From Marsupella aquatica (Eukaryota > Plantae > Marchantiophyta): a stretch of DNA of 64,000 nucleotides. Positions 5,872 to 64,000 of the stretch are shown here, piece by piece. A model generated the notes under the pieces. That model was not told the origin of the DNA. It saw only the letters and a program-made list of their open reading frames with translations, and made no database searches. Location: positions 16,290,148 to 16,354,147 of the forward strand of contig OZ316891.1 in NCBI GenBank assembly GCA_973895155.1, read 5' to 3'. Position 1 is the first letter of the stretch. Each line of letters opens with the position of its first letter. The position numbers and the translations under genes were made by a program.

Positions 5872-7352
5872 CGGGACACGCTTCCCACGCCAATCACCTG
5901 CTGTTCCTCCTTCAAGATCTTCTTCAGTTGGTTGAGGAGGTACCCGTTGTAATCCCGGCTTGGGTCTGGCCTTTCTGCCAGGTAGACCTGAGCCTTGCCG
6001 ATCTTTGCCCTCGGCAAGTTACAATGCATGGTCACCCGCAAGAAATCGATCATCTCTCCGATGTGCGGGTTGGTGCAGGTGTTCCGGAAGAAGCCATTCT
6101 TCATTGATGGTCCTAGGAATGACCGGAACTCCTTGTCAGGTAAGGTCTTCCTGGTATCAACCTTGGTCTTATTACCCATCGGCAAGCCAAACACCTCGGC
6201 AATCACCTAGGGAGTGAGATAGAAATCCTTCCCATACACCCTCGTGGAACTGGTCTCGGGTTCCCATGATCCTGTGAATTCTAATAAGTCTGAGTTCGGC
6301 ACCTCCGGCTTCAGCCATGATAATCTTACGAAGGCTTCCAAGCCGGATCCGGCCATGAAGCCCTGGTACTTCTTTATCTGCATGGCCGTAAAGCATGCAT
6401 CCTCCTCCCGTGCAAAATGTAATTGCACTTCCTCTGGTAGGATCGCCGCCCAGCCTTTCCAGGTGTCATCCTTTGTTGGAATGGCATTGATGGGATCAAC
6501 CTCCTCCTCTTCGGCTTCTCCCTGCCTCCTGTTCTGCTGCTCTGCTGGCTTCCTTGGTGCCGCCGACCTCGTTCGTTTTGCCGGGGTGGCCTCTTCGTTG
6601 TTGTTTCCTTTCCTCTTCATCTCGGCTGCCATGGATGTTTCTCCTAGCACAGTTGCCTTTGTCCACCCCTCCGTGCTACCCTTCAACTCCCAGTGCGCGT
6701 CGTTGCAGCAGTTGATGGCTTCCCAAATGCCGACGATTCTGTCTTCGCAAAACAGAAGGTCATCGAGCTGATTGGCAGTAGGAGTCCACAAGAACTCAGC
6801 CTTGATGAGTTCTCCTCCTAAGAAGGCGGACTTCTGCAACTCCCACAGTCGAGCGAGCTCCTGCTATTCTCGAGCTGCTCTCTCCGATTCTTCGTCCTCG
6901 TACGTAAGTCCTAATGTACTTAGTTGCCCGTTCAAACAGGCATCCCCAAAAATGTGCCGCTTGATTGACGTTGCTCATACCCTCCTTGACTCGATCGTTG
7001 GTATTTGCTCCCGCCCTGAGTGCTTGCTTAAGCAGCTGACAGTAGTTGGCCTTCCATAGTCGTCTGCCCAGTTTGTGCTTGCAAATGAGCCACCATTCCT
7101 CGCGAGCGGTCCTTACCCCTCTCCTCCTCTGGTCTTTCCTCCCGTTGGTTACCTAACCACCGATGCTTAGCGCGCCCTAACCCTAATCGTGTTTTCTCCC
7201 CCGATGTCCTTACCTCCGGCCACGGCCCGGGTTCCATAGTCACCCTTAATTGTTTATATTTTCCTTGTTTTTGTTACTATACTAATGTGTTTATAGGGTA
7301 CACCTCCATTTCCCCACTTAACTGGCCTAGTGATTCCTGGCTAGGCATCACA
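5872..7352 (-). mobile_element. Truncated, decayed copy of the ORF-bearing Gypsy LTR (5' 1.5 kb)
   Basis: Ends in the same terminus (ctaggcatcaca, 7352) as the LTRs at 45263 and 56121. ORF pieces 5835-7243 are near-identical in protein to the LTR ORF. Confidence 0.9.
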
Positions 7353-40562: not shown

Positions 40563-40603
40563 CCCTATTCCAAGGAAAGTTGGAACCCAATGGAGTACCA
40601 ACT

Positions 40604-43600
40604 TGTGGTGCGTCCCATGGCTCCCTAAACCCAAGAAACCCCCCAGCTCAAGCCGATTCCCGCAGGTTTCGTGCTTGGCGAGGCCGTTTCCGCAGCTTAG
40701 CGGCATGGGACGCTGCTAACCTTCTACTACTACTATTAACATTTTACACACATATACTGGACAGATCCTTCATCGGGTCATGAGATACGTAGCCGGCCTA
40801 ATATAGGCCTTCCCCTGTCTTCCCTTGTCTTCCCCTCCGTCTTGTTAGGTATGTTTGGATTCCGCCGCCGGAATGATCCCCAATAGGCTTGGTTAAGCCG
40901 CTAAGACCTCTCTCAGCTCGACACATCCAACTCTCACTCCCCTGCTTACTTTCCTTCCTTCTGTTGATGTGGGCACTCTTCACACAAGTTAATGCGACAC
41001 ACAAATAGCAAAATGACTCATTCTGACTGAGTCATACCATGCACTTGCCATACAAACAGTACATCTCATACACAAGTTCTGCGAACTAAGCCGTGAGGCC
41101 AACTCTATTCAGCTCTTAGGCATGAGGAAACATGAATATACACAAGGGTCACTGTATGACTAACCGAGAGCTTCTCGTACTACTTGATCCCAGCCCGGCT
41201 GGTGCAAACTAAAAACTTGCTAAAGAAGAGGCCCTGAGCTCCCCGCTGCCCAGGTACTTATCCTGGTAGTGGATCCGCTATTCTTTGCATCGTAAGCCTA
41301 ATCTACTTAACAGTAATCTACTTGCCCGAATCTACCTATGTACAGCAAGGCAGGAGCACAAGTGTTGCTCCTACCAGTGGGACCGCAATCCCACTAAGCT
41401 AAGTGTCAGGGCCGCTCCTGGTTCTGATCCTAATCCTAAACGTGGAGATCCGCGCCCGCCCTGCCCACTCACGCCTCCTCCCTCCACGTCCGCCCTCCCT
41501 AAAAGGAACGGCGCCCTTGCACCGTCACGACACCGGTGGTGGATCCTCAATGGACGCCCCCAACACTTCCTCCTCAGCCACTGCCGTTGGCCCGCCTACT
41601 GACAGATTACCTGCCCTTCACCGAGTCAACTCTCCATCGGCCTGACTGGGTCCACCTTCGGCTTCAGCCTCGACACCGGCCTCGGCAATACCCACGGCTT
41701 CGGCCTCAGCCACTCCCACGGCTTCGGCTTCAGCCACTCCCTCGGCTTCGGCCTCCCCTTCCCCTAGGGTAGTTGGATCCTTAGCCGTGACCCTGTCTGG
41801 GGTCGGTGCTGGGTCTACCTCCTTGATCACCACGGCCTGTGAAGTCGTATTACTCCTTGACCCTGAAGGTTTCCGCTTCTTCTTCGTTGGTGGCTCGGCA
41901 GCTGGTCCCTTCCCCTTCCCACTTACTTCCGGCACTGGTGCAGGTGGCGCGGCTTGTCCTTCGGCAATTACCACCCCTGGTAACTGGTTTGTCCCAACGG
42001 GAGATGGACCTGCTGCAGCTAAGCATTTAAATACTGCGGCTTGTTTCTTCAGCCGCTCTGTTTGGTTGTCGGCCCGCCGCTGTAGGTTCTCCATCTTCCT
42101 CGTGATTTCCTCCAACTCCTCTTGGGTTTCATCCAGGTCCTTACGTGCCCCCTCCAGCTCGTTTTTGGCCTCCTCCTGCTCCCTGTGGGCTTCCTCCAAT
42201 TCCTTCTTCAAGGTAGCCCTCTCCTCCTGGGTTGCTCTTAGCTCCTTGTCGAGCTCTGCAATGATGACAGACTCCATCTGGTTCATCTTGGCGTAAGTCT
42301 GTTCGAGCATCTCGTCCTTCTCCCTTAGGTCGGCCTTGAAGCTGGCCGTCAGGGACGCAAGCTCCTGCTGCAGCGCCATAATCCCTTGATAGGATTTCCC
42401 TAACTCGACCTCCTTCTGCTCAAGGGCTCCGCGGATTTTCTCGAGCTCCCCTTTCAACGCCCATTCCTTTCTTTGGGTCTCCGCCATGGCCCGGCTGTTG
42501 GCTGTTATGTGGGCCTCCTCTGTATTCTTCAGCTCTTGCTTCCACTTCTCCCTCTCTTTGATCGTGTCGGCCAACTCTTCCTGCGTCTGAGTCAGTTTAT
42601 CCTTGATATTCTGATTATCAGCCTGCGCGGTGTCCAACTGCCCCTGCATGATGTTCAGCTCATGTCGTTTAATCCGCAGTTCATCTTGGGCTTTCTTGGC
42701 CGCCCTTAGATCTTCAATCTCGGCTTCCATCCTCCTAAGCCGCCAAATGACCTCGTCCTTCTTGCTTCTCTCTAAAGCCACCGCTTCTTCTAATTGGTGC
42801 TTCTCCAACTGCTCCCTATGGAAAAAGGGTCCTACCTCCAACTCCTCTCCAAAGATGCCGTGCGCAAGTTCCCCACACATCTCACCATACTCCATGGCTC
42901 TATTCTTAGCGTAGGTGGAGTAAGTAGAAGTGATCGGCATCGCCCATCGTGGCCTCTGCTCCCAAGCCGTCCTGCGGATCTCTTCAATCGTGGCTAGAGG
43001 TTTGCTTCCTTTTTCGGCTAGCCGCCTGATGTCCTCCGGCCAATCTCCTCCTGGTAAATCCTTTTCCTTAGCCAAGGCGGCCTCTTCCTCCTGCTTGATT
43101 CGCTCCTGAAATTCCTGCACCATCTGTTTTATGCCGTCGAAGCTCGGGGGAGCAACATCTGGTGGGGGAGACTCAGGGCTACTCTGCTGGTTGGGGTCCC
43201 CTCGCACTACCCTTGGAAGTGTGGGGACAAACCGGCCACAGGTCCTTACTCCTGGAACGTGATGGTCCGACCCATAGCCGGAATTATCATGGCTGCAGTC
43301 CTCCACTGCCTCCTCTACCTCTTGGACGTCCGGCTTCTCCCTCTCCTCTTCCTCGGTAGGAGCTTCAGGCAATTCTGCCTCAGATTCGGAGCTTGAGGTT
43401 CCCACGTACATTCGAACACCTGGCTTGGATTCCGGCCTGATTCTCTTCTTGTCTCCAGCAAAGGGGTTTTCTCTTGTGAGCCGGTGTAGGCCTACCTCTG
43501 TAGTAGTGTCCTGCATTGTTGCCGTTGCCGTTGTTGTTGCCGATGCCGATTTCTTTTCTTTCTCCAGTAGTTTCAGCAGACTCTGCATGCCTGGTTGCTG

Positions 43601-45263
43601 CATCGGCAAGTCTTCCTTCCTGGGCCTAAACACCTGCTCGATCATAGGACTAACAGGTGGTTGAGGCTTCTCAGCCAACGGCCTCGGCGTTGGAGCTTCC
43701 TCCGGTGCCCTTACCTGCAGGGGAAGTACCGGGGCAAAAGTCTGACTTCTGGCATACCGGCACAACAGCGGCATGTGATAGCCAAGCCGCGACACGCTCC
43801 CCATGCCGATTACCTGCTACTCCTCCTTTAAGATCTTCTTCAATTGGTTGAGGAGGTACCCGTTGTAGTCCCGGCTTGGGTCTGGCCTTTCTGCCAGATA
43901 GACCTGTGCCTTGCCGATCTCTGCCCTCGGCAAGTTACAATGCATGGTCACCCGCAAGAAGTCGATCATCTCTCCTATGTGCGGGTTGGTGCAGGTGTTC
44001 CGGAAGAAGCCATTCTTCGTTGATGGCCCGGGGAACGACCGGAACTCCTTGTCAGGCAAGGTCTTCCTGGTATCAACTTTGGTCTTATTGCCTATCGGCA
44101 AGCCAAACACTTCGGCAATTACCTTGGGAGTAAGATAGAAATCCTTCCCATATATCCTCGTGCAATTGGTCTCGGGTTCCCATGACCCCACGAATTCTAA
44201 TAGGTCTGACTCCGGTACCTCCGGCTTCAGCCATGGTAATCTTACAAAGGCCTCCAAGCCGGATCCGGCCATGAAGCCTTGGTACTTCTTGGTCTGCATG
44301 GCCGTAAAGCATGCATCCTCCTCCCGTGCAAAATGTAGTTGCACCTCCACCGGTAGGGTTGCCGCCCAGCCCTTCCAGGTGTCATCCCTGGTTGGAATGG
44401 CCTTGATGGGATCGACCTCCTCCTCTTCGGCTTCTCCCTGCCTCCTGCTTTGCTGCTCGGCTGGCTTCTTTGGTGCCGCCGACCTTGTTCTTTTTGCCGG
44501 GGTGGCTTCATCGTTGACGGCTCCCTTCCTCTTCATCTCTGCTGCCGTGGAGGTTTCTCCTAGCACCGTTGCCTGGGTCCACCTTTTCGTGCTACCCTTT
44601 AATTCCCAGTGTATGTCGTTGCAGTTCTTGATGGCCTCTCGGATGCCGACGACGCTGTCTTTGCAAAACAGAAGATCGTCGAGTTGATTGGAAGTAGGCG
44701 TCCACAGGAACTCGTCCTTGATGAGTTCGCCTCCTAAGAAAGCCGTCTTCTGCAGCTCCCACAATCGAGCGAGCTCCTGCCGTTCTCGAGCTGCCCTTTT
44801 TGACTCCTCGTCCTCGTAAGTCTTGATATACTCAGTTGCCCGTTCGAACAGGCATCCCCAGAAATGTGCCGCTTGATTGACGTTGCTCATACCCTCCTTA
44901 GGTCGATCGTCGGTATCTATTCTCTCCCCGAGTGCTTGCCTAAGCAGCTGACAGTAGTTGGCCTCCCGTAGTCGTCTGCCTAGTTCGTGCTCGCAAATGA
45001 GCCACCATCTCCTGCAAGCGCTCCTTACCCCTCTCCTCTGCCGGTCCTTCTTCCCGTTGATCCTTCCTAGCCGCCGACGCTTAACGCGCCCTAACCCTAA
45101 TCGGGTTTTCACCCTTAGCCTTACCTCCGGCCTCGGCCCGGGTTCCATGGTTGCCCCTAATTGTTCATATTTTCCTTGTTTTGTCACTATACTAAGGTGT
45201 TCCTAGGGTGCCTTCCTGCTTTACCCACTTAACCGGCCGAGTGATTCCTGTCTAGGCATCACA
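40604..45263 (-). repeat. 3' LTR (4660 bp)
   Basis: Near-identical to 51472-56121 apart from one 10-bp indel and roughly 14 substitutions counted by eye; preceded by the PPT. Confidence 0.97.
41618..45187 (-). pseudogene. LTR-encoded ~1180-aa protein (Athila-ORF1/Transposase_32-like core plus long coiled coil), 3' LTR copy; one CAG>TAG at 43817
   Basis: ORFs 43817-45187 and 41618-43804 are in one frame. First ATG at 45148 in ACCATGG context. The other LTR has Q at this stop. Confidence 0.85.
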
Positions 45264-48200
45264 TAGCTCCCCACTTAATTGTGAAGCGTCCTCGCGAACA
45301 ACTTCATCTTCGTCCATATAGTATTTCTTGAGGCGGTCATAATGGATGCGAACTGGATATACCTCTCCCGTAATGTTGGCCAATTGTACGGAGCCATTGG
45401 GGAACATCATGGTTACTCTAAAGGGTCCTAACCAGCGAGTGTAAAGCTTTCCTGGAAACCTACTATACCTATTGTCATAAAGTAGCACAAGATCACCGGT
45501 ATGAATACTAACTACTTTTAACCTTTTATCATACTGCTGCTTCATGATATTCTGTCTATATTCTACTCTCTCGGCTGAAATCATTCTCGCTTCCTCTAAA
45601 GCTTCTAACCTATATTCTCGCTCCTTTAGGCTCTCCTCCGCTGAGGCTCTTTCCTCAATTGTAACTTGAAATGTCGGTATCTCAAGTTGCATGGGTACCA
45701 GGGCTTCTTGTCCAAAGGTTAAGAAGCCCGGTGTATGACCGGTAGTGGATTTATAGGCAAGATTGTAAGCAAAAACAGCAGCAAACAATTTATCATCCCA
45801 ATCGAGTTTGTTCTGAGCTACTGTCTTGTTCAATATCTTTCCTATGATTCCGTTTGCTCGTTCTGTCAACCCGTTTGCCTTTGGATGGTAGGGAGTAGTA
45901 GGCCTATGTTTAACTAAATACTGCTCATTTAAACGACTAATTATATCATTCAAAAAATGGGTTCCTCTATCACTAACTAATTCTAGGGGTGCTCCATACT
46001 TGGTGAAGATCTGCTCATACATGAATCTAGCCGTAGTAATTGCATCATCCTTCGTTGTTGGTCTGGCCTCTACCCATTTAGTTGCATAATCCGTAGCTAG
46101 GATTATGTACTTGTTCCGTCGAGGGTGGGTCAGTGGTTTCAGAGGTCCAATGTAATCAATACCCCACTTCTCGAATGGTGCCAGAGGTAGAATAGGGTGC
46201 AGTGGATGCCTGGTGGACGCCCTTGGTCCTCCCGCTCGTTGACAAGGATCGCATTGTTTGATAAACTGATAGACATCTTTGTGCAAGGTGGGCCACCAGT
46301 AACCGGCATTTAATATCTTCTTAGACGTGGTTACTGGGGCAAAATGTCCTCCGGCCTCCTCTCCATGCATGGCCCGTAGGACTCGTTTTACCTCTCTCTT
46401 TTCCAAACATCTTTGAATCGTGCCGTTGATTCCATGCTTGTGCAGTATGCCTTTAATGCACTGATACTGTCTGACCTTCCGCACAAAGACTGCGGCTTGC
46501 TCTCGGCTTAATCCTGGCTGTAATCTGGAAGTGCTGAGAAAATGTAAAATCTCAGGGTACCATGTACCAACTATTTCCACAATGAATAGCTCCTCGTCGG
46601 GGAATCGATCATCGATGCAATCCGTGGCAGGTTTACCTGTGATCCTTGAAAAGAAGTCGGCATTGGCATGTAACTTTCCCGGCTTGATCCTCAGCTCATA
46701 GTCAAACTCCTGTAATAGCAAAATCCATCTTGCTACTCTGCCTGTAAGGTCCGGCTTATTGACTAGGTACTTCAAACTTTCATGATCAGTATGAAAGATT
46801 ACCTTGTACCCTAGTAAATAATGTCTAAACTTTTTACAAGAATAAATGACTCCTAATGCTTCTCTTTCCATGGTAGAGTAGTTCCGTTCGGCATCGGCAA
46901 GCTGACGGCTTGCGAAGTATATGGGATGGTCCTTTCCTTTCTCATCCAACTGACTTAGTACTGAGCCAATACAGAAGCCCGAGACATCTACAAAAACATA
47001 AAAATCTTTGTTCCAGTCCGGTGCTATCATGACTGGGGCCTCTACTAACATCTGCTTCAATTCTACCACCGCTGTGACTCGTTCGGGTGTGGGTTCGAAG
47101 TCTGCTCCTGCCTTGAGCATATTGGTTAATGGTAAAGCCAGCTTGGCAAAATCCTTGATGAACCGGCGATAGTAACCAATGCATCCCAAGAAGGATCTTA
47201 CATCCTTTATGTTCGTAGGTTGCATGATATCTAGCCATACTGCTAGCTTACCTTTGTCAATCTCAATGCCCTTCCTTGATACCTTGTGACCTAGTAGCAC
47301 CCCCTCGGTTACTGCAAAAAAACATTTATCTGAGTGTAACTTGAGACCCACCTCTCTACATCTCATGAAGGTTTTCCTGAGGTATTTAGCATGTTTCGAT
47401 GCCTTCCCGAATACTGCAAAGTCATCAATGAAGATTTCCATGAACTTTCTCAAGTAATCATGAAAAATGTTCACCATTAATCGTTGGAACATAGCTGGTG
47501 CGTTGCAGAGTCCAAACGGCATACGATTGAAGACATAGATCCCCCATTCCGTGATGAAGGCCGTCTTGATTTGGTCTTCCTGCCGAATCCTGATTTGGTT
47601 ATAACCAGAGTATCCATCCATGAATGAATATAGTTCATGACTGGCTACCATGTCTAGTACCATATCAATAAACGGTAAAGGAAAATGGTCTTTTAATGTT
47701 GCTTCATTCAGCTTCCTGTAATCCTGACAAACCCGGATCTTGGGTTTACCATCGGGTCCAGCTTTCTTGGGAACTATCACAATTGGAGACACCCAGTCTG
47801 AATGCAGGACTGGAGTGATGAATCCAGCTTCCACTAGTTTGTCGATTTCTGTTTTGACCAACAGGGAATACTTCGGGTTCATCCTTCGAATTGGTTGTCG
47901 AAATGATTTGGCTCCTAACATGAGATCAATTCGATGTTCCCCTAGTGTTGGATCTACTCCCTTTAGATCTTGGTGACTCCATGCAAACACATCCTGAAAT
48001 TCAATCAATAAGTCACTGATCTCTTTCTCGAGCTCAGGTGCTAGGTTTCTCCCTAAGTTCAGTTCTCTTCCCTCTCCTAAGTCGAGCTTCCGATATTGCC
48101 GTGCTTGGATCATATTAATCTGCTTCTTCAAATTCGGGTCCAGTTCGGCTTCCAGTCTCTCTAATCTCATACCTCCATAAACTGGGATCTCGGCTGGACT

Positions 48201-48518
48201 AGCCGAGTCGGTCCCTTCCTTGGTGTCCATAGATTGTCCCCTTATCGGTCTATTCGGTTTTGAATTAGTGGTCGGCTCCCCTTCCTGCCTTGGCTCTAGA
48301 TCGTGTCTGTCCATCTCATCCACCTCTTGCTCCTGAGAGTTAGGCCGCTGTGCTCTCTCGGCTTCTAATAGGGCCTCAATTTGTTCTGCCCTCGTAATCG
48401 GCTTGTATGCCGATCCCTTGGTATTTAATTCCTTGCCGATGATCGATGGCGTTGTGGACCCCGTCGGCTCTGCCACAACGCCTGCAGAAAATCCACTGTC
48501 CCTGCTACTGCTCCCCAC
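45252..48518 (-). CDS. pol: pol: reverse transcriptase, RNase H, integrase (uninterrupted 1088-codon frame)
   Basis: WVSPIVIVPKK, DYRKLN, KDHFPLPFID, DGYSGYNQI, MPFGLCNAP, FIDD, YFASR...ERNYS, HHCC (H...GGH...CDPC), WGIDY, SDRGTHF, NGLTER, WLGPF. Confidence 0.95.
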   Translation of the reverse strand: MGSSSRDSGFSAGVVAEPTGSTTPSIIGKELNTKGSAYKPITRAEQIEALLEAERAQRPNSQEQEVDEMDRHDLEPRQEGEPTTNSKPNRPIRGQSMDTKEGTDSASPAEIPVYGGMRLERLEAELDPNLKKQINMIQARQYRKLDLGEGRELNLGRNLAPELEKEISDLLIEFQDVFAWSHQDLKGVDPTLGEHRIDLMLGAKSFRQPIRRMNPKYSLLVKTEIDKLVEAGFITPVLHSDWVSPIVIVPKKAGPDGKPKIRVCQDYRKLNEATLKDHFPLPFIDMVLDMVASHELYSFMDGYSGYNQIRIRQEDQIKTAFITEWGIYVFNRMPFGLCNAPAMFQRLMVNIFHDYLRKFMEIFIDDFAVFGKASKHAKYLRKTFMRCREVGLKLHSDKCFFAVTEGVLLGHKVSRKGIEIDKGKLAVWLDIMQPTNIKDVRSFLGCIGYYRRFIKDFAKLALPLTNMLKAGADFEPTPERVTAVVELKQMLVEAPVMIAPDWNKDFYVFVDVSGFCIGSVLSQLDEKGKDHPIYFASRQLADAERNYSTMEREALGVIYSCKKFRHYLLGYKVIFHTDHESLKYLVNKPDLTGRVARWILLLQEFDYELRIKPGKLHANADFFSRITGKPATDCIDDRFPDEELFIVEIVGTWYPEILHFLSTSRLQPGLSREQAAVFVRKVRQYQCIKGILHKHGINGTIQRCLEKREVKRVLRAMHGEEAGGHFAPVTTSKKILNAGYWWPTLHKDVYQFIKQCDPCQRAGGPRASTRHPLHPILPLAPFEKWGIDYIGPLKPLTHPRRNKYIILATDYATKWVEARPTTKDDAITTARFMYEQIFTKYGAPLELVSDRGTHFLNDIISRLNEQYLVKHRPTTPYHPKANGLTERANGIIGKILNKTVAQNKLDWDDKLFAAVFAYNLAYKSTTGHTPGFLTFGQEALVPMQLEIPTFQVTIEERASAEESLKEREYRLEALEEARMISAERVEYRQNIMKQQYDKRLKVVSIHTGDLVLLYDNRYSRFPGKLYTRWLGPFRVTMMFPNGSVQLANITGEVYPVRIHYDRLKKYYMDEDEVVREDASQLSGELCDA
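45264..45275 (-). other. Polypurine tract AGTGGGGAGCTA, inside the pol coding sequence
   Basis: Immediately precedes the TG of the 3' LTR. Confidence 0.8.
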
Positions 48519-49783
48519 TTAGCCGTTTCATCCAATTGGTCTACATCCTTTACTTCCTCCGGAATTGCAGCTAAAAAGGTGGATTCTATTGTAAAGCAGT
48601 CCTCGACCTCTTCGTCTTCTTCTTCCAAGTCACCTTCCATTGGTTCTTGCCATAATCCACTGGGGGGTACCTCTGGTCCAAAGACACCTTCTTCGGTTAG
48701 GTTAGTGAGGCATTCTAACCAACGTACTTCATCGGCTGACTCCAGTCCACTATCGTACCCATCTACTTCCCTTATGCTTTTCCTACGGTCATCCTTAGTG
48801 TCCCAGGATACCGTGATAGAGGGGGTCCCGAAAGTGAACTGCTTTTTACCCCAATCTTCTATTACCTCGGCTAGGTACAGCCATGGCCTACCAATCAATA
48901 GCCGGAATGACGTAGGATTTACCGGCTTCATTACTACATAGTTAATGCTAAAGAAGATACCTCCTATCTCTGTCTTGATGCCGGTTAACACTCCCGTCGG
49001 AATGACCTGATATCCATTGGCCATGTTCAACACTCTTCCAGTCATCTCCGGTGTTAGACCCCACCCTTTTGCTGTTGAATCAATCATAATACATACCCCT
49101 GATCCTCCATCGATGGGTACCCGTAGTAATAATTCTCCTTGAATCATTAATGGTAATGCTGGGGCTCCTTGATCTTCTTCTATCATTAGTACGTCGGATC
49201 TGGTTGCTACCTTGGGTAATCTCGGCTTGCCGAGAATAGCCTTCCTTAATTGCTTCCGGAAGTACGGGCTATTTTTCAATAGTTGACCTACTGTTGCCGA
49301 GACTCTAGATTCTAGTACATCTTTAGCCAGGTCATAGGGAACAATCGGCTTCTCTTCTGGTGGTGTTTCCGTCTTGGATTCGGCCAGTTTTGCCACGCTA
49401 GTCTCCACAGCTGTTGGGTCTTCCGAAGCAAACAATGCTTTTGCTCGTTTTACATCCTTGGCAATGGCTTCGGTATTCTCCAGGGTTTCTAATTCTCTTA
49501 GTTGTTCCTTAACACTAGCCGTAACAGAGGGGTAGAACAACTTAGGATGATCTCGATTGAAGTCGCTATCTTGTGAAGGATTGGTTTCACTGGTGGGCTC
49601 ATGGCTTACCTGTATTGCCGGAGCCCTCCCTTCTCCTTCTGTTGATGTTGACGAAGAGTCGATCCTTTCCTCCGTAACCTTCCCTTTATTTTTGGCCAGC
49701 CCATCCCACCTTTCCTTCCTTCTGGTAGATCGAGTAGAGACCCGGTAGCAATCATGATCTAAATCCTCCTCTGAGAAGGTTGA
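48425..49783 (-). CDS. Aspartic protease region
   Basis: VPIDGGSGVCIM active site, LLIGRPWL; frame open from ~49783, including YRVSTRS. Confidence 0.85.
   Translation of the reverse strand, partial: STFSEEDLDHDCYRVSTRSTRRKERWDGLAKNKGKVTEERIDSSSTSTEGEGRAPAIQVSHEPTSETNPSQDSDFNRDHPKLFYPSVTASVKEQLRELETLENTEAIAKDVKRAKALFASEDPTAVETSVAKLAESKTETPPEEKPIVPYDLAKDVLESRVSATVGQLLKNSPYFRKQLRKAILGKPRLPKVATRSDVLMIEEDQGAPALPLMIQGELLLRVPIDGGSGVCIMIDSTAKGWGLTPEMTGRVLNMANGYQVIPTGVLTGIKTEIGGIFFSINYVVMKPVNPTSFRLLIGRPWLYLAEVIEDWGKKQFTFGTPSITVSWDTKDDRRKSIREVDGYDSGLESADEVRWLECLTNLTEEGVFGPEVPPSGLWQEPMEGDLEEEDEEVEDCFTIESTFLAAIPEEVKDVDQLDETAKWGAVAGTVDFLQALWQSRRGPQRHRSSARN
48435..48494 (-). promoter_or_regulatory. Putative -1 programmed ribosomal frameshift signal between protease and RT
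   Basis: G GAT TTT (48494-48488) in the PR frame, 5-nt spacer, perfect 10-bp stem GGCGTTGTGG/CCACAACGCC; pol is in the -1 frame. Confidence 0.75.
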
Positions 49784-51402: not shown

Positions 51403-51448
51403 TACCTACGCTTCCGTTCTAACTTCATATCTCACGGCTTAAGAAATG

Positions 51449-51467
51449 CCCCCTCCATCTAGCGCCA
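51449..51467 (-). other. Primer-binding site TGGCGCTAGATGGAGGGGG
   Basis: TGG start 4 nt after the 5' LTR end; cognate tRNA not identified. Confidence 0.75.
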
Positions 51468-51471
51468 AAAA

Positions 51472-54400
51472 TGTGGTGCGTCCCATGGCTCCCTAAACCC
51501 AAGAAACCCCCCAGCTCAAGCCGATTCCCGCAGGTTTCGTGCTTGGCGAGGCCGTTTCCGCAGCTTAGCGGCATGGGACGCTGCTAACCTTCTACTACTA
51601 CTATTAACATTTTACACACATATACTGGACAGATCCTTCATCGGGTCATGAGATACGTAGCCGGCCTAATATAGGCCTTCCCCTGTCTTCCCCTCCGTCT
51701 TGTTAGGTATGTTTGGATTCCGCCGCCGGAATGATCCCCAATAGGCTTGGTTAAGCCGCTAAGACCTCTCTCAACTCGACACATCCAACTCTCACTCCCC
51801 TGCTTACTTTCCTTCCTTCTGTTGATGTGGGCACTCTTCACACAAGTTAATGCGACACACAAATAGCAAAATGACTCATTCTGACTGAGTCATACCATGC
51901 ACTTGCCATACAAACAGTACATCTCATACACAAGTTCTGCGAACTAAGCCGTGAGGCCAACTCTATTCAGCTCTTAGGCATGAGGAAACATGAATATACA
52001 CAAGGGTCACTGTATGACTAACCGAGAGCTTCTCGTACTACTTGATCCCAGCCCGGCTGGTGCAAACTAAAAACTTGCTAAAGAAGAGGCCCTGAGCTCC
52101 CCGCTGCCCAGGTACTTATCCTGGTAGTGGATCCGCCATTCTTTGCATCGTAAGCCTAATCTACTTAACAGTAATCTACTTGCCCGAATCTACCTATGTA
52201 CAGCAAGGCAGGAGCACAAGTGTTGCTCCTACCAGTGGGACCGCAATCCCACTAAGCTAAGTGTCAGGGCCGCTCCTGGTTCTGATCCTAATCCTAAACG
52301 TGGAGATCCGCGCCCGCCCTGCCCACTCACGCCTCCTCCCTCCACGTCCGCCCTCCCTAAAAGGAACGGCGCCCTTGCACCATCACGACACCGGTGGTGG
52401 ATCCTCAATGGACGCCCCCAACACTTCCTCCTCAGCCACTGCCGTTGGCCCGCCTACTGACAGATTACCTGCCCTTCACCGAGCCAACTCTCCATCGGCC
52501 TGACTGGGTCCACCTTCGGCTTCAGCCTCGACACCGGCCTCGGCAATACCCACGGCTTCGGCCTCAGCCACTCCCACGGCTTCGGCTTCAGCCACTCCCT
52601 CGGCTTCGGCCTCCCCTTCCCCTAGGGTAGTTGGATCCTTAGCCGTGACCCTGTCTGGGGTCGGTGCTGGGTCTACCTCCTTGATCACCACGGCCTGTGA
52701 AGTCGTATTACTCCTTGACCCTGAAGGTTTCCGCTTCTTCTTCGTTGGTGGCTCGGCAGCTGGTCCCTTCCCCTTCCCACTTACTTCCGGCACTGGTGCA
52801 GGTGGCGCGGCTTGTCCTTCGGCAATTACCACCCCTGGTAACTGGTTTGTCCCAACGGGAGATGGACCTGCTGCAGCTAAGCATTTAAATACTGCGGCTT
52901 GTTTCTTCAGCCGCTCTGTTTGGTTGTCGGCCCGCCGCTGTAGGTTCTCCATCTTCCTCGTGATTTCCTCCAACTCCTCTTGGGTTTCATCCAGGTCCTT
53001 ACGTGCCCCCTACAGCTCGTTTTTGGCCTCCTCCTGCTCCCTGTGGGCTTCCTCCAATTCCTTCTTCAAGGTAGCCCTCTCCTCCTGGGTTGCTCTTAGC
53101 TCCTTGTCGAGCTCTGCAATGATGACAGACTCCATCTGGTTCATCTTGGCGTAAGTCTATTCGAGCATCTCGTCCTTCTCCCTTAGGTCGGCCTTGAAGC
53201 TGGCCGTCAGGGACGCAAGCTCCTGCTGCAGCGCCATAATCCCTTGATAGGATTTCCCTAACTCGACCTCCTTCTGCTCAAGGGCTCCGCGGATTTTCTC
53301 GAGCTCCCCTTTCAACGCCCATTCCTTTCTTTGGGTCTCCGCCATGGCCCGGCTGTTGGCTGTTATGTGGGCCTCCTCTGTATTCTTCAGCTCTTGCTTC
53401 CACTTCTCCCTCTCTTTGATCGTGTCGGCCAACTCTTCCTGCGTCTGAGTCAGTTTATCCTTGATATTCTGATTATCAGCCTGCGCGGTGTCCAACTGCC
53501 CCTGCATGATGTTCAGCTCATGTCGTTTAATCCGCAGTTCATCTTGGGCTTTCTTGGCCGCCCTTAGATCTTCAATCTCGGCTTCCATCCTCCTAAGCCG
53601 CCAAATGACCTCGTCCTTCTTGCTTCTCTCTAAAGCCACCGCTTCTTCTAATTGGTGCTTCTCCAACTGCTCCCTATGGAAAAAGGGTCCTACCTCCAAC
53701 TCCTCTCCAAAGATGCCGTGCGCAAGTTCCCCACACATCTCACCATACTCCATGGCTCTATTCTTAGCGTAGGTGGAGTAAGTAGAAGTGATCGGCATCG
53801 CCCATCGTGGCCTCTGCTCCCAAGCCGTCCTGCGGATCTCTTCAATCGTGGCTAGAGGTTTGCTTCCTTTTTCGGCTAGCCGCCTGATGTCCTCCGGCCA
53901 ATCTCCTCCTGGTAAATCCTTTTCCTTAGCCAAGGCGGCCTCTTCCTCCTGCTTGATTCGCTCCTGAAATTCCTGCACCATCTGTTTTATGCCGTCGAAG
54001 CTCGGGGGAGCAACATCTGGTGGGGGAGACTCAGGGCTACTCTGCTGGTTGGGGTCCCCTCGCACTACCCTTGGAAGTGTGGGGACAAACCGGCCACAGG
54101 TCCTTACTCCTGGAACGTGATGGTCCGACCCATAGCCGGAATTATCATGGCTGCAGTCCTCCACTGCCTCCTCTACCTCTTGGACGTCCGGCTTCTCCCT
54201 CTCCTCTTCCTCGGTAGGAGCTTCAGGCAATTCTGCCTCAGATTCGGAGCTTGAGGTTCCCACGTACATTCGAACACCTGGCTTGGATTCCGGCCTGATT
54301 CTCTTCTTGTCTCCAGCAAAGGGGTTTTCTCTTGTGAGCCGGTGTAGGCCTACCTCTGTAGTAGTGTCCTGCATTGTTGCCGTTGCCGTTGTTGTTGCCG

Positions 54401-56121
54401 ATGCCGATTTCTTTTCTTTCTCCAGTAGTTTCAGCAGACTCTGCATGCCTGGTTGCTGCATCGGCAAGTCTTCCTTCCTGGGCCTAAACACCTGCTCGAT
54501 CGTAGGACTAACAGGTGGTTGAGGCTTCTCAGCCAACGGCCTCGGCGTTGGAGCTTCCTCCGGTGCCCTTACCTGCAGGGGAAGTACCGGGGCAAAAGTC
54601 TGACTTCTGGCATACCGGCACAACAGCGGCATGTGATAGCCAAGCCGCGACACGCTCCCCATGCCGATTACCTGCTGCTCCTCCTTTAAGATCTTCTTCA
54701 ATTGGTTGAGGAGGTACCCGTTGTAGTCCCGGCTTGGGTCTGGCCTTTCTGCCAGATAGACCTGTGCCTTGCCGATCTCTGCCCTCGGCAAGTTACAATG
54801 CATGGTCACCCGCAAGAAGTCGATCATCTCTCCTATGTGCGGGTTGGTGCAGGTGTTCCGGAAGAAGCCATTCTTCGTTGATGGCCCGGGGAACGACCGG
54901 AACTCCTTGTCAGGCAAGGTCTTCCTGGTATCAACTTTGGTCTTATTGCCTATCGGCAAGCCAAACACTTCGGCAATTACCTTGGGAGTAAGATAGAAAT
55001 CCTTCCCATATATCCTCGTGCAATTGGTCTCGGGTTCCCATGACCCCACGAATTCTAATAGGTCTGACTCCGGTACCTCCGGCTTCAGCCATGGTAATCT
55101 TACAAAGGCCTCCAAGCCGGATCCGGCCATGAAGCCTTGGTACTTCTTGGTCTGCATGGCCGTAAAGCATGCATCCTCCTCCCGTGCAAAATGTAGTTGC
55201 ACCTCCACCGGTAGGGTTGCCGCCCAGCCCTTCCAGGTGTCATCCCTGGTTGGAATGGCCTTGATGGGATCGACCTCCTCCTCTTCGGCTTCTCCCTGCC
55301 TCCTGCTCTGCTGCTCGGCTGGCTTCTTTGGTGCCGCCGACCTCGTTCTTTTTGCCGGGGTGGCTTCATCGTTGACGGCTCCCTTCCTCTTCATCTCTGC
55401 TGCCGTGGAGGTTTCTCCTAGCACCGTTGCCTGGGTCCACCTTTCCGTGCTACCCTTTAATTCCCAGTGTATGTCGTTGCAGTTCTTGATGGCCTCTCGG
55501 ATGCCGACGACGCTGTCTTTGCAAAACAGAAGATCGTCGAGTTGATTGGAAGTAGGCGTCCACAGGAACTCGTCCTTGATGAGTTCGCCTCCTAAGAAAG
55601 CCGTCTTCTGCAGCTCCCACAATCGAGCGAGCTCCTGCCGTTCTCGAGCTGCCCTTTCTGACTCCTCGTCCTCGTAAGTCTTGATGTACTCAGTTGCCCG
55701 TTCGAACAGGCATCCCCAGAAATGTGCCGCTTGATTGACGTTGCTCATACCCTCCTTAGGTCGATCGTCGGTATCTATTCTCTCCCCGAGTGCTTGCCTA
55801 AGCAGCTGACAGTAGTTGGCCTCCCGTAGTCGTCTGCCTAGTTCGTGCTCGCAAATGAGCCACCATCTCCTGCAAGCGCTCCTTACCCCTCTCCTCTGCC
55901 GGTCCTTCTTCCCGTTGATCCTTCCTAGCCGCCGACGCTTAACGCGCCCTAACCCTAATCGGGTTTTCACCCTTAGCCTTACCTCCGGCCTCGGCCCGGG
56001 TTCCATGGTTGCCCCTAATTGTTTATATTTTCCTTGTTTTGTCACTATACTAAGGTGTTCCTAGGGTGCCTTCCTGCTTTACCCACTTAACCGGTCGAGT
56101 GATTCCTGTCTAGGCATCACA
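51472..56121 (-). repeat. 5' LTR (4650 bp)
   Basis: Direct repeat of 40604-45263; followed by the PBS. Confidence 0.97.
52476..56045 (-). pseudogene. LTR-encoded ~1180-aa protein, 5' LTR copy; stops at 53157 and ~53010
   Basis: Same 3570-nt frame as 41618-45187. First ATG at 56006. Both stops are sense codons in the other LTR. Confidence 0.85.
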
Positions 56122-57300
56122 CAACTGGTTTTGCATTCTCCATCCCATACTTGGCAAGTACCTTCTCCTTGAAATACTACCTCTAAGATAACCATAATTG
56201 CCTTTGCTCATTGTCACGGTGAATCTCTATCCCTAGAATCTTCTTGGCCTGACCCAAGTCCTTCATTGAAAACTCCTTACTCAACATTGCTTTCAGATGA
56301 GCAACATCAACCATACTCTCAGCCAGGATTAGCATGTCATCCATGTACAGTACTAAAGTTTGAGTAATTTTCCACCTCATTATGTAAATACAACAATCAT
56401 GTTTACTCCGCGTGAACCCCTAAGACAACATGCAGAAATCAAAATGCTTATTCCACTGTCTAGGACTCTACTTCAAACCGTATAATGAGCGCAAGAGCTG
56501 ACACACCAAGTGTTTGGTCTTCTCGTCAATAATCCTAGAGGCTAAGTCATATAAATCACCACATCAAGCAATCCATGCAAGAAAGCAGTAATTACATCCA
56601 TCTGACCTAACTCAAGATCATAGAGTGTCACAATTGCAAGTAAAACACAGATAATAGTGAGCTTGACAACTGGTGTACCCTTTGGCCACAAGGCATGCCT
56701 GGCTTGTAAGTGTCATTTGGCTTCTTCTTGTACAACCATCTACATGGAACCAGTGTCTTCCCGCGAGGCATGTCCACTAAGCGCCAAGTTGAATTCTTCT
56801 TCAAAGATTTTATCTCCTTCAACGTTGTCTGCATCCACTTATCCTTCTCTAGAGAGGCCATAGCTTCTTCATAGCTAGAGGGGTCTCCATCCTCAGTGAG
56901 CAATATAATACCGAGATCATTGTTGTGCTCAACCAAGTGAACCCGAGGATCTGCAAAACCAAATCTATCAGGGGGTTGGCCAAGATTGGCCCTTGTAGAG
57001 CACCTTAATTGAGTAACTGCACCTCTACCAAAGGGTCTAGTAGCTTCCTCAACACCATCAAGCTCCATCGTAGTGGGTTACTCCACCTGCTCCTCTTGAT
57101 TATCCTGGGATCTTGACAACCATTCTTTGTCAAAAATAATATTTCTACTCACAATTGCCTTGCAATCAATAGGATCCCATAACTCATAGCCCTTCTGCCT
57201 TGGACTAAAGTCTAGAATAATACATTTCTTACACTTGGGATCCAACTTAGACCTGTGTGTCTGCTCAATGTGAACATAGGCAACACACCCAAAAACAAGG
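56122..57300 (-). mobile_element. Ty1/Copia remnant (integrase C-terminus and RT), target of the Gypsy insertion
   Basis: FGCVAYVH, KLDPK, YMDDML, FSMKDLGQAKKILGIEI; the frame continues across the TSD as ENAKPVGTPLGSNF (to ~40576). Confidence 0.85.
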
Positions 57301-58028: not shown

Positions 58029-60295
58029 TATAAATTTTGAAATTTGTTCCGCATGAACCCCACGGATGGGGGAAACAGGCAGGCCAAAATGCGGCAGACC
58101 ATCAAGGGCAGAAAAAAACACACACATCAAAGCGGTAGCATAATCCATAAGAGAGCAAGTCTGAATGTAACTAGGGATCAGACAGGGGATCCCAAGTGTC
58201 AATCCAAGTCAAAAGGAGTATTCCTAGGGATCAGAGTAATCCCAGTCTTAGGAGAACCTGAGGCAAAGTCTAAGTAGAAGCAAGATTGCCCAGTCTAGCT
58301 ACACCAAAGTGTCAACCTGTCAAAGGCAAAAAGGCAATGGAGTAGCCATGCTTCAATGAGTTGTAGTACTTTGAGTATCCCGACCTAAAATCCTAAGTTG
58401 CTCTACTTCAAGGAGAGATCTAGCCTTGGTAAGGCGTACATGCTTGTTGCTCAGGGGCGAAGCTAAAGCAACAGCATTCAGATGGTCAATAGTTTCAGAG
58501 AAAACCTGCCATGTATCAAAAGTCCTCAGTCTAGTTCTATCAAAAGTGTGCCCATTCCTAGCTAACCAGATAGACCATAAAGTCTGGAATAGAAGAAAGG
58601 TACGTAGTGTAGTCCGAGGGGCCTTCCCAGACGTGGAAGGAGTAAGCCCACAATGCTCATCCTGCCAATCACTAAAATTCCATGTATCCAGTCGCTAGTA
58701 GTGACCCAACAATGGATGGCATGCCTGCATAAAAGAAATATGTGCGGGATGGTCTCAACTATTCCCGTGCAAAGCGTACAGCAGCCATCAGATTTACCAA
58801 TTCGTAGCGCCCGTGATCCCGAGAAGAGGCCCTCCGCCAGGATCCTCCACAGAAAGGTTTTGGCTTTCGTGGAGAGATCAGCAGTCCAAACCACTTTCCA
58901 GACATAGTTCCACTCAAGCTCCGTCAGAGTCTCATGCCAAATTTGATTAAGTCTAATAAAGTTAGAGCCCTTCGGGCGGAGCATCTCGTATACCCTACTG
59001 TTAGGTATACTGAAGCGCAGGGGCACCGCCTCCTTATCAAGCCAACGCCATTGCCGAGCCACAGAGTCAAAGGCACTGCCCCGGTGTCCAGATCGAAGAA
59101 CAACATTGAGGAAGGCGAGGCCCCAGCTCTTCTCAGCACCAGAGAAGCCTCTAAATCTAAGAAGTCTATCTTCAAAGTTCCTCCAAACCCCATCCATAGG
59201 GGACCATAAATCACCAACAACTCTGACTCCTAACCTGCCACATATCTTGACAATTATGGCGAGTAGGTCTGTCTCAGCGAGATTGTAGAAGCCTATCAAA
59301 CAACGGAGCAAGTCTTCAATACCCCAATGGCCTGGAATAGCAATCTCCCCAGGAAAGAAAAGCAAATTAGCTCTTACCTCCATCCAAGAAGTCCAGATCT
59401 GACCAATGTAAATTAGTTGACCAAACGAACCGGGAGTACTGAGCAGCATCTTATCTGACATAGAATATTTGTTCCTGCGGACTGTCTTATAGTTCCTCCA
59501 TTAACTAAGTGTAGATTCTCAGCAAACAATCGGGCCCACTCAGAATACGGATGATCCAATGCACCAGTGAACCACTTACTGAGAAGAGCATTCGAATGAC
59601 TTTTGAAATCCTTCAGACCAAGCCCCCCATCAGCTTTTGGTCGGGATAATTTATCCCATGCAACCAGCGGAATACGCTTCCCTCCCTGGTCATTGGTACC
59701 CCATAAAAACAGTCTACTCAATGCTGTCAGTTTCTTGGTTAACAAATTAGGCGATCGCAAAAACATCATATGATACACGGGAATGGCCTGAAGTACATGT
59801 TTGACCAACAGTAATCTACCAGTGAAAGAGAGGAACCGCGTCGACCAGGATGAGAGTCTGGCTCCAATACGGTCTAGACAGAAGTTGTGAAGTTGACTCT
59901 CAGTCAATCCAGTGCCGAAGGGGGCTCCCAAGTATTTCTACACCGAGCCTGGTTCAGAGATCACACATCCAGTGGCGCGAAGCCAATCCGGGATCCCATC
60001 TAAAGCAATGGGTATAACAATTGACTTCCTTAGATTTAGCTTTGCTCCTGTAGCCGTCTCGTAGCAATGAATGGCAGTTCTAGCCTATTTGAAAGCCACT
60101 TCTGCGGCTAGGATGAATAAACCCAGGTCATCGGCAAAGAGACAAAAACAAATATTTAGGAATTCAGAGATCTGTATGCCTTGCAGTCTCCCAGCAGCAA
60201 TCTCCGCATTGAAAAAATCCATAAGCGGTTGTGTGGAAATAGCAAAAAGTAAAGGCGACACGGGGCAGCCCTATCTAACTCCATGAAGCATCTGT
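57997..60295 (-). mobile_element. L1-type LINE 3' half, same family as 9694-17098, ending in an (AAT)n tract
   Basis: GVR*GCPVSPLL, FADD, LGAPFG, RIGKSDGCC, shared 3' hairpin. Confidence 0.88.
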
Positions 60296-63200
60296 ACTGC
60301 CATTGGTCCGTCCTCTGATAGATTACCTGCCTCTGACCGAGTTAACTTTTCATCGGCCTGACTGGGTCCACCCTCGGATTCGGCCTCGGCTCGGAAATCA
60401 TTCTCGGCTACGGCCTCAGCCTCGGCTACGGCCTCCCCGGCCTGCTCAAGAGGTGGATCTGGGATACCGGCCTCATTACTGAGTAGTTTGGCTTGGGCCG
60501 CGCCATCCCCACCTTTGGTGATAGCGGAATCTATTGCTGTGTTCATGCCGGAGGTTGGTACCGGTTTGAGTACGGCTTGAGGGGTCGAATAACCTCCGGA
60601 CCCCGAAGGTTTCCGCTTCTTCTTCTTCACTATCTCCATAGCCGGTTCCTTCCCCTTGCCGCCAACGTCCGGCACCGGGCCGTGTGTCACGGCTGGTCCT
60701 TCGGCAATTACCACCCCAGGTAACTGGTTTGCCCCAACGGGAGATGGACCTGATGCAGCTAAGCATTTAAATACTGTGGCTTGTTTCTTCAGCCGCTCTG
60801 TTTGGTTGTCGGCCCGCCGCTGTAGGTTCTTCATCTTCCTCGTGATTTCCTCCAACTCCTCCTGGGTCTCATCCAGGTCCTTACGTGCCTCCTCCAGCTT
60901 GTTTTTGGCTTCCTCCAATTCCCTGTGGGCTTCCTCCAATTCCTTCTTGGTGGTAGCCCTCTCCTCCTGGGTTGCTCTTAGCTCCTTGTCGAGCTTTGCT
61001 ACGACCTCCGACTCCATGTTATTCATCTTGGCATAAGTCTGGTCGAGCTGGGCGTCCTTCTCCCTTAGGTCGGCCTTGAAGCTGGCCGTCAGGGATGCAA
61101 GCTCCTGCTGTAGCGCAACAATCCCTTGATAGGATTTCCCTAACTCGGCCTCCTTCTACTCAAGGGCTCTGCGGATGACCTCGAGCTCTTCCTTCAGCGC
61201 CCTCTCCCTTCTCTGAGCCTCCGCCATGACCCGTTTGTTGACTGCTATATGGGCCTCCTCTGCGTCTCTCAGCTCCTTCTTCCATTTCTCCCTGTCCTTG
61301 ATTGCGTCGGCCAATTGTCCCTGTGTCTGAGTCAGTTTATCCTTGATAATCTGATTATCAGCCTACGCGGTGTCCAACTGCCCCTGCATGATGTTCAGCT
61401 CATGCCGCTTAATCCGCAGTTCATCTTGGGCTTTCTTGGCCGCCCTTAGATCTTCAATCTCGGCTTCCATCCTCCTAAGCCGCCGGATGACCTCGTCCTT
61501 CTTGCTTCTCTCTAAAGCCACCGCTTCTTCTAATTGGTGCTTCTCCAACTGTTCCATATGGAAAAAGGGTCCTACCTCCAACTCCTCCCCAAAGATGTCG
61601 AGCGCAAGTTCCCCACATATCTCACCATACTCCATGGCTCTATTCTTAGCGTAGGTGGAGTAAGTAGAAGTGATCGGCATCGCCCATCGCGGCCTCTGCT
61701 CCCAAGCCGTCTTGCGGATCTCTTCAATCGTGGCTAGAGGTTTGCTTCCTTTTTCGGCTGGCCGCCTGATGTCCTCCGGCCAATCTCCTCCTGGAAAATC
61801 CTTTTCCCTAGCCAGGGCTGCCTTCTCTGCTTCCCTAAGTCGCTCCTGAAATTCCTGTGCCGTCTGCTTTATGCCGTCAAAGCTCGGGGGAGCGACATCA
61901 GGTGGGGGAGACTCGGGGCTGCTCTGCTGGCTTGGGTCTCCTCAAACTACTCTTGGGAGCGTGGGGATGAACCGGCCACAAGTCCTTACTCCTGGAACAT
62001 GATGATCCGACCCATAGCCGGAGTCATCATTGCTGTAGTCCTCTACCGCCTCCTCCTCAGCTTGGACTACCGGCTTCTCCCGCTGTTCTCCTGGTTCTGT
62101 TGTTAACACGGCTTCACCTCTCACCGGTCTTGGTTCCTCCTCCGGCTTCCGTGTTGATCTCTTGTTCTCCTTGTCGTGGCCGGGAGCTACGGCCTGCTTC
62201 TCCTCGGCTTCGGGACTTAAGGCTCCGACATACATCCGGACTCCCGGCTCGTGTTCCGGCCTCCTTCTCTCCTTGACCCCAGTAAAGGGGTTTTCCCTTG
62301 TAAGCCGGCTTAGGCCCACCTCTGGAGCAGTGTCCTGCATTGGTGTCGTTGTCATTGTCGTTGCCATTGCCGTTCTCTTTTCCTTCTCCAGTAATTTCAG
62401 CAGATTCTGCATGCCTGGTTGCTGCATTGGCAAGTCCTCCGTCCTTGGCCTAAACACCTGCTCAATTGTAGGACTGTCGGGCGGGTTGGGTTTCTCCGTT
62501 GTCGGCGCCTGCTCCGGGTCCTCCTCCGGTGCTCTTGCCGATAGGGGAAGTACTGGGGCAAAGATTTGACTTCTGGCATACCGGCACAACAGCGGCATGT
62601 GATAGCCAAGCCGGGACACGCTTCCCACGCCGATCACCTGCTGTTCCTCCTTCAAGATCTTCTTTAGTTGGTTGAGGAGGTACCCATTGTAATCCCGGCT
62701 TGGGTCTGGCCTTTCTGCCAGGTAGACCTGAGCCTTGCCGATCTCTGCCCTCGGTAAGTTACAATGCATGGTCACCCGCAAGAAGTCGATCATCTCTCCT
62801 ATGTGCGGGTTGGTGCAGGTGTTCCGGAAGAAGCCATTCTTCGTTGATGGCCCGGGGAACGACCGGAACTCCTTGTCAGGCAAGGTCTTCCTGGTATCAA
62901 CTTTGGTCTTATTGCTTATCGGCAAGCCAAACACTTCGGCAATCACCTTGGGAGTAAGATAGAAATCCTTCCCATATATCCTCGTGGAATTGGTCTCGGG
63001 TTCCCATGACCCCACGAATTCTAATAGGTCTGAATCCAGCACCTCCGGCTTCAGCCATGGTAATCTTACAAAGGCCTCTAAGCCGGATCCGGCCATGAAG
63101 CCTTGGTACTTCTTGGTCTGCATGGCCGTAAAGCATGCATCCTCCTCCCGTGCAAAATGTAGTTGCACCTCCTCTGGTAGGGTTGCCGCCCAGCCTTTCC

Positions 63201-64000
63201 AGGTGTCATCCCTGGTTGGAATGGCATTGATGGGATCGTCCTCCTCCTCTTCGGCTTCTCTCTGCCTCCTGCTCTGCTGCTTGGCTGGCTTCTTGGGTGC
63301 CGCCGACCTCGTTCTTTTTGCCGGGGTGGCTTCATCGTTGACGGCTCCCTTACTCTTCATTTCGGCTCCCGTGGATGTCTCTCCTAGCACGGTTGCCTTT
63401 GTCCACCCCTCCGTGCTACCCTTCAACTACTAGTGTATGTTGTTGCAGCGTTTGATGGCTTCTCGGATGCGGACGACTCTATCTTCGCAAAACAGAAGAT
63501 CGTCGAGCTGATTGGAAGTAGGAGTCCACAAGAACTCGGCCTTGATGAGTTTGCCTCCTAAGAAAGCCGTCTTTTGCAGCTCCCACAATCGAGCGAGCTC
63601 CTGCCATTCTCGAGCTACCCTTTCTGATTCTTTGTCCTCGTAAGTCTTGATGTACTCAGTTGCCCGTTCGAACAGGCATCCCCAGAAATGTGCCGCTTGA
63701 TTGACGTTGCTCATACCCTCCTTGAGTCGATCGTTGGTATCTGTTCCCACCCCGAGTGCTTGTCTAAGCAGTTGACAGCATTTGGCCTCCCGTAGTCGTC
63801 TGCCCAGTTCGTTCTTGCAAATGAGCCACTATTCCTCGCGAGCGGTCCTTACCCCTCTCCTCTTCCGGTCCTTCCTTCCGTTGATCCTTCCTAGCCGCTG
63901 ACGCTTAGCGCGCCCTAACCCTAATCTTGTTTTCACCCCCAGTGTCCTTACCTCCGGCCTCGGCCCGGGTTCCATAGTCGCCCCTAATTGTTTATATTTT
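60296..64000 (-). mobile_element. Diverged (subfamily) copy of the ORF-bearing Gypsy LTR, 3' part deleted, continuing beyond the window
   Basis: ORF pieces 60271-63750 are homologous to the LTR ORF, with an in-frame insertion and a divergent C-terminus; several stops. Confidence 0.92.

Follow-up and report, generated by a model that had tools for sequence, protein, structure and literature searches.

A long accessory gene in the LTRs of a Gypsy element, probably from a bryophyte, evolved under purifying selection

Results

A complete Ty3/Gypsy element in the window

The stretch of DNA analysed here (the window) is 64,000 nucleotides long and contains, on its minus strand, a complete Ty3/Gypsy element of 15.5 kb with an interior of 6.2 kb, hereafter the main element. 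It has direct LTRs with TG...CA ends, a target site duplication (TSD), a primer binding site (PBS) and a polypurine tract (PPT), and in a Pfam scan its domains follow the Ty3/Gypsy order of gag, reverse transcriptase (RT), RNase H and integrase. Its parts are as follows:

51472..56121, minus strand: 5' LTR (copy B), 4,650 bp, TG...CA ends; direct repeat with 40604-45263 at 99.46% identity
40604..45263, minus strand: 3' LTR (copy A), 4,660 bp; differs from B by 15 substitutions and a 10-nt indel
40599..40603, other copy 56122-56126, unstranded: TSD of 5 bp, read from the element flanks
51448..51471, minus strand: PBS, after a short T spacer downstream of the 5' LTR
45264..45300, minus strand: PPT and upstream junction motif, within the last pol codons; the motif recurs at the junctions of loci L067 and L001
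49957..51405, minus strand: gag (Retrotrans_gag and zinc knuckle by Pfam)
48425..49783, minus strand: protease-region ORF, in a frame different from that of RT, assigned by position
45252..48518, minus strand: pol (RT, RNase H and integrase, from ORFs and Pfam), with its stop codon inside the 3' LTR

The PBS may resemble the 3' end of tRNA-Asn. By Pfam, pol had neither an extra RNase H nor a chromodomain match, the protease-region ORF had no match, and the additional archaeal-type RNase H by which Tat elements (TatI-III, Ogre, Retand) are recognized was absent from both. Over 48425-49956, gag, the protease region and RT each lie in a frame of their own; in the close relative P0069 (1,700 residues), gag and RT domains belong to one protein. 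The separate frames may stem from natural recoding or from decay. By eye, an uninterrupted Copia-type reverse transcriptase frame can be followed from one flank to the other (40560-40603 and 56122-56400), in support of the boundaries set for the insertion of the main element.

Elsewhere in the window, a broken Gypsy-type integrase fragment (7360-8240, plus strand) ends in a cysteine/histidine pattern that we take to resemble a PHD finger. An ORF cluster at 1518-5337 (plus strand) has a weak match to N6/N4 DNA methylases (E 0.0017, below the cut-off) and, in an upstream ORF, what we presume to be a ParB-like motif; the cluster is possibly a transposon-borne methylase. There is also a degenerate, C/T-rich array of short tandem repeats at 17530-18885 and part of a host O-fucosyltransferase gene at 25433-25996 (plus strand; E 5e-37).

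A long reading frame downstream of the polypurine tract

Each LTR of the main element contains a 1,176-codon frame, oriented like gag-pol and downstream of the PPT. Along this LTR gene we distinguish an N domain (codons 87-200), a core (256-470), an acidic/proline linker, a helical middle, a coiled-coil-like region at about 831-1040 (so called from many Pfam coiled-coil matches, all sub-threshold), a basic motif at about codon 1086 and an acidic tail:

52476..55748, minus strand: LTR gene of copy B from its likely start at codon 87; about 1,090 codons with two internal stops
41618..44890, minus strand: LTR gene of copy A from its likely start; one internal stop
54597..55241, minus strand: conserved core domain of copy B, codons 256-470, used in the selection tests; a remote motif may be common to it and to Transposase_32/ATHILA proteins
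55749..56027, minus strand: TATAAA box (LTR position 95) and a stop-poor, unconstrained stretch, codons 1-86; candidate promoter and leader
51472..52475, minus strand: non-coding last LTR kilobase; contains a tract rich in T/TGTA and, about 200 bp short of the LTR end, a TATA-like word

A preliminary description of this DNA had taken the reading frame to include the 86 codons of this likely untranslated leader. Codons 1-87, compared between LTR copies, gave pN/pS values of 1.09, 1.65 and 1.21 with no excess of changes at third positions, and codons 88-200 gave 0.22-0.35; an ATG at 56006 was rejected as the likely start. All four LTR copies of the window retain an in-frame ATG at codon 87, and one short homologue starts at about codon 88. 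Together, the unconstrained codons, the conserved ATG and the start of the homologue make it likely that the gene begins at codon 87 and comprises about 1,090 codons, codons 1-86 being leader. The TATAAA box, which occurs once in the LTR, 21 nt upstream of the first ATG, is intact in copies B, C and D and altered in A, and the last LTR kilobase is likely to hold the main promoter, R and U5 of the element. A PPT-like G run lies 50 nt past the stop of the LTR gene (52420-52440, minus strand), a pattern that recurs twice in the internal region; it might, at a stretch, be a relic of an older priming site.

All present copies of the gene are decaying

Besides the two LTRs of the main element, the window contains two diverged copies:

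60296..64000, minus strand: copy C, diverged LTR copy; likely start 63714, six stops and five in-frame indels; runs off the window end
5872..7352, minus strand: copy D, diverged LTR of which the first 1.48 kb is present; TG at 7352, likely start 6978, two stops and two frameshifts

Since A and B are the LTRs of one insertion, the four copies that we compared represent three lineages. No PPT was found before the TG of copy D at 7352. Copy C adjoins a LINE fragment near 60296 and the rest of its LTR is absent from the window; that LINE (58562-60295) is related to others at 10410-16411 (with Pfam matches to DUF4283, RT and zf-RVT), 30844-31428 and 34769-39984.

Against B, copy C differs by indels of 3, 84, 12, 3 and 33 nt, all five multiples of three (chance 0.004 if a third were in frame), so that the frame-preserving indels noted in the preliminary description hold for copy C; they do not for copy D, in which 2 nt are deleted near 7150 and 4 nt are inserted near 6907, each change breaking the frame. 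With the 3-nt indel common to C and D counted once, the pooled indels are in frame in 5 of 7 cases (p=0.045). The indel near 62100-62200, previously put at roughly 35 codons, measures 84 nt, that is 28 codons, and the 3-nt indel near 63940 (at 63945), which had been offered as evidence, sits in codons 1-87, the probable leader with pN/pS 1.09-1.65, and is therefore no evidence for selection.

In-frame stops occur in every copy (one in A, two in B, six in C and two in D). All 11 are private to a single copy, and 6 of them are single transitions at CG/CHG sites, while the 10 coding changes that separate A from B since insertion comprise 3 synonymous changes, 4 nonsynonymous changes and 3 stops. 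As private stops are present in every copy, selection acted on past transposing ancestors and the present copies are decaying. The earlier characterization of the ORF as a functional protein and not passenger DNA thus applies to the history of the family and not to these copies, all of which are interrupted.

The core changed under purifying selection

Comparison of the core between lineages (codons 256-470) revealed 19 synonymous and 7 nonsynonymous changes for B versus C, 33 and 17 for B versus D, and 26 and 15 for C versus D, which confirms that copies C and D differ from the main element mostly at synonymous sites in this region; the synonymous pairs first noticed near 62620-62670 (GTA/GTG, GAG/GAA, TTA/TTG and TTG/CTA) are all present in the alignment. 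For the three pairs, core dN/dS was 0.10-0.14 without transition weighting and 0.14-0.20 with a transition weight of 4, with bootstrap upper limits of at most 0.36, and for the whole alignable frame it was 0.25-0.46. Hence the proposal of selection on the ORF stands (core dN/dS 0.10-0.20), for three lineages and not four copies.

The synonymous excess might conceivably be a trace of something else, namely of an ORF that is a captured host gene or a passenger, in which earlier host selection or methylation-driven mutation bias left such an excess. That all copies are broken, that 6 of the 11 stops are single CG/CHG transitions and that the window holds only three lineages would agree with this. 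The signal, however, survives both masking and a context-matched permutation. When all CG/CHG columns were dropped, core pN/pS was 0.12, 0.13 and 0.16 (Fisher p <= 6e-6), so that the masked, domain-wise comparison proposed beforehand gave values far below 1. When the observed changes were re-placed onto sites with matching base and methylation context, 17.7, 32.9 and 27.1 amino-acid changes were expected in the core and 7, 15 and 14 were observed (p=0.001 for each pair). Moreover, the adjoining leader lacks the signal, the signal is measured between element copies and so arose after these had diverged, and variants in other sequencing runs agree with it. We regard the passenger explanation as very improbable and largely refuted.

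The variants in question were drawn for the core from four sequencing runs with four different organism codes, runs with a small share being left out. Among the 40 core variants listed (from 89 variant sites), 33 were synonymous; neutral change would give 10.4 on average, and none of 5000 draws exceeded 20. Over the whole gene the signal was much weaker, with 9 of 26 listed variants synonymous and most of them outside the core, a count that omits 2 further sites at stops of B. Within the LTR, the permutation test (p=0.001) shows the linker (codons 471-690) and the coiled-coil region to be constrained like the core; for codons 201-255 and 691-830 most results are non-significant, and the tail loses significance once CG/CHG sites are masked. 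Codons 1-87 of the same LTR and the changes between A and B served as internal controls, and neither carries a selection signal.

The near-identity of the core proteins had been read as constraint, and constraint accounts for it in part. Taken per 50 codons, the synonymous divergence of B from C varies between 0.00 and 0.63, so that some of the identity reflects recent common ancestry of the segment and not constraint alone, and this swing suggests recombination between sub-lineages. We conclude that purifying selection did act in the past on this long accessory gene, carried in the LTRs of a Gypsy element that is likely from a bryophyte.

Homologues and remote family likeness of the protein

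A full HMMER scan gave 21 matches, of which 20 are plausible homologues at 25-48% identity; P0137 was dropped as a bacterial Ig-domain protein. Of the 10 looked up, two have a named source, in both cases Calypogeia fissa. Word-based homologue searches with the ORF yielded no match (one pass covered proteins of 1,379-3,935 residues), neither pol nor the core had a relative among viral contigs, and solved structures gave no sequence match to the protein.

For profile comparisons we aligned 17 core matches and two cluster members, omitting three matches to the N domain only. The resulting profile aligned with Transposase_32/ATHILA ORFs from metagenome loci over about 57 columns, a single motif, at a score of 31.5; across 60 block shuffles the score reached at most 18.9, and the reversed control scored 14.5. 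Across versions of the profile, match probabilities ran from 22 to 72%, with coverage confined to one N-terminal motif. The core and the 21 search matches had no match to Transposase_32, ATHILA or PMD, and neither the core nor its homologues matched any Pfam family at curated thresholds. When profiles were compared, neither single Transposase_32-bearing proteins nor three Athila-like ORFs gave a significant result. The language-model neighbours were Transposase_32, ATHILA, PMD and DUF1985 clusters at 0.85-0.89, with named families scoring under 0.9, and serve as leads only. What links the core to Transposase_32/ATHILA is best described as remote likeness, not membership.

Structure models were poor (pLDDT 33 alone and 52 with 20 sequences), and fold searches with them returned no match at E <= 0.001, a result that does not inform on the fold itself. 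No transmembrane helix was found (highest 19-residue hydropathy 0.98), so that the protein is not a classical envelope. This bears on the possibility that the gene lies in U3 and its product is a structural or transport helper, such as a particle scaffold, a nuclear import factor or an integration tether, instead of a transcription or anti-silencing factor. Such a role would suit the long coiled-coil-like region and the low-complexity linkers; with no chromodomain match in the integrase, help in targeting could come from elsewhere, and nuclear-import roles have been proposed for extra ORFs (PMC7264820). Yet the lack of a membrane segment removes the classical envelope from this group of roles, and related PMD proteins act on chromatin in Arabidopsis (PMC5418596); we consider a helper unlikely.

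Relatives of the host element and the place of the gene within the LTR

The liverworts Calypogeia, Riccia and Marchantia supply the nearest named Pol matches, which makes a bryophyte host likely. A quick tree of 57 rows (RT-RNase H) joins the main element to two Calypogeia proteins and P0069 at support 100; this group falls in a 12-row set (support 95) that has L067 among its members and stands apart from the clade with ATHILA/Transposase_32 loci; L067 is the single one of 80 loci inside this set. In L067 the junction motif and TG follow right after pol, and then come a TATA box and a 632-codon frame, so that this locus appears to have the same layout, with an ORF within the LTR. As its contig has no second LTR, the LTR is placed indirectly, its start being set by the motif alone. 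The N part of the L067 ORF aligned weakly with the core in one profile alignment (E 6e-4, probability 28%), and an HMM search of the 80 loci with the A1 profile detected neither this ORF nor any Athila ORF.

The junction motif precedes TG in the main element, L067 and L001. In the Athila-like L001, a 1,267-codon ORF ends just before the motif and is internal; thus the extra ORF comes before the motif in L001 and after it in the main element and L067. A 6.19-kb repeat of L001 was tried as a second ORF-bearing LTR and rejected, as PPT and PBS define a 1.43-kb LTR that leaves the ORF internal. This ORF occurs at L001 1037-4840 and 13593-17396, has no Pfam match and aligns weakly to Transposase_32/ATHILA ORFs.

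Position within the LTR could also mean position in R. In that case the element would have its sole promoter in the TATA box at LTR position 95, its genomic RNA would open with the gene as first cistron, much as in Ogre or Tekay with their 5' extra ORFs, and gag-pol would be expressed by splicing or re-initiation. The only TATAAA of the LTR does sit upstream of the gene, the TATA box of L067 is likewise upstream of its ORF, and the T/TGTA-rich tract of the last kilobase resembles a plant 3' UTR. On the other hand, this arrangement requires an R of more than 4 kb and a genomic RNA with the gene twice, a TATA-like word occurs about 200 bp short of the LTR end, and the order of pol then gene is that of Athila-type 3' ORFs. 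A gene in R seems improbable to us.

Discussion

Our preferred reading, held with slightly more confidence than doubt, is that the frame is an accessory gene of a non-chromoviral Ty3/Gypsy element, lying inside the LTR and kept by purifying selection in active lineages; it would likely occupy U3 with a promoter of its own and encode a nuclear regulator of the Transposase_32/ATHILA/PMD type that aids element transcription. In the ancestor, the gene would have been located between pol and the PPT, as in Athila-type elements, and a shift of plus-strand priming to the end of pol would have made it part of U3. Reverse transcription would then copy the gene into both LTRs in every round, the genomic RNA would carry it once, after pol, and each LTR, even a solo one, would come with promoter, gene and poly(A) signal, with copies decaying neutrally after insertion. 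The product would be nuclear and regulatory, a role that we borrow from published speculation on PMD and TRP28 proteins. A more far-reaching version, tentative and in our view rather doubtful, is that this priming-site shift brought an Athila-type accessory gene into the U3 of a bryophyte Gypsy lineage, whereby every LTR, solo LTRs included, would be a stand-alone gene for a trans-acting anti-silencing factor able to outlive deletion of gag-pol.

Protein genes in or overlapping U3, duplicated by reverse transcription, are known from animal retroviruses in MMTV sag and lentiviral nef; these genes are much shorter than the LTR gene and their proteins are unrelated to it. Among plant elements, the 3' extra ORFs of Athila (ATHILA PF03078, Transposase_32 PF20167) are alike in belonging to non-chromoviral Gypsy elements without extra RNase H, in being sense ORFs after pol and possibly in the short core motif. 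The main element agrees with Athila in its 5-bp TSD and lack of extra RNase H, and Athila elements are further recognized by a PBS for tRNA-Asp or tRNA-Asn. In contrast to Athila, the ORF of the main element is downstream of the PPT in both LTRs, not between pol and PPT, the LTR gene has about 1,090 codons with no Pfam match and no membrane segment, and the RT sequences group apart.

The PMD ORFs of Ogre and the TRP28 ORFs of Retand resemble the LTR gene: these accessory ORFs occur lineage-wide and encode a plant-transposon domain, many of them show coiled-coil (Smc-like) matches, and a regulatory function has been proposed for them (PMC6317226, PMC11963269, PMC5418596). Their hosts carry an extra RNase H, unlike the main element, and the Retand ORFs are internal and in antisense, in elements whose LTRs measure 315-1,194 bp. 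TRP28 proteins have been put forward as regulators (PMC11963269); PMD proteins act in silencing in Arabidopsis, and anti-silencing has been speculated for transposon-borne ones (PMC5418596). Phygy and Selgy are, like the main element, non-chromoviruses of non-seed plants with a polyprotein that fills nearly the whole interior, but PMC6317226 gives them 4-bp TSDs and lengths of 4.4-10 kb and lists no extra ORF, whereas the main element has a 5-bp TSD and 15.5 kb. Phygy in particular is described by a 4-bp NCGN TSD, 7.7-10 kb and no extra ORF, and on this description the main element, with its 5-bp TSD, 15.5 kb and extra ORF, is set apart from it. ORF0 of Retrosat2, RIRE3 and RIRE8, compared by description (PMC3485330), is an extra ORF shown to be under selection, with Ka 0.26 versus Ks 1.65, in elements with LTRs longer than 3 kb; unlike the LTR gene, it is described as upstream of gag-pol and belongs to a grass element family.

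A review puts extra ORFs in the internal region (PMC7264820). The literature searched on ORFs inside LTRs, with subscription papers mostly outside its scope, contained no description from plants and no LTR gene of this size; it also took in PMC13468544, PMC7466625, PMC11728184, PMC12885004 and bioRxiv 10.64898/2026.03.20.713144. Selection on extra ORFs as such is well known and ordinary, and it is the large gene within an LTR, not found in that literature, that would be new.

LTRs are usually taken as non-coding and neutral, serve as clocks and are masked as repeats. A kilobases-long selected gene in LTRs alters the way such elements are annotated and what a solo LTR is capable of. In addition, the core may widen the Transposase_32/ATHILA/PMD group to bryophyte elements beyond Athila and Tat, and such a wider group would bear on the question of the origin of the plant mobile domain (PMC5418596).
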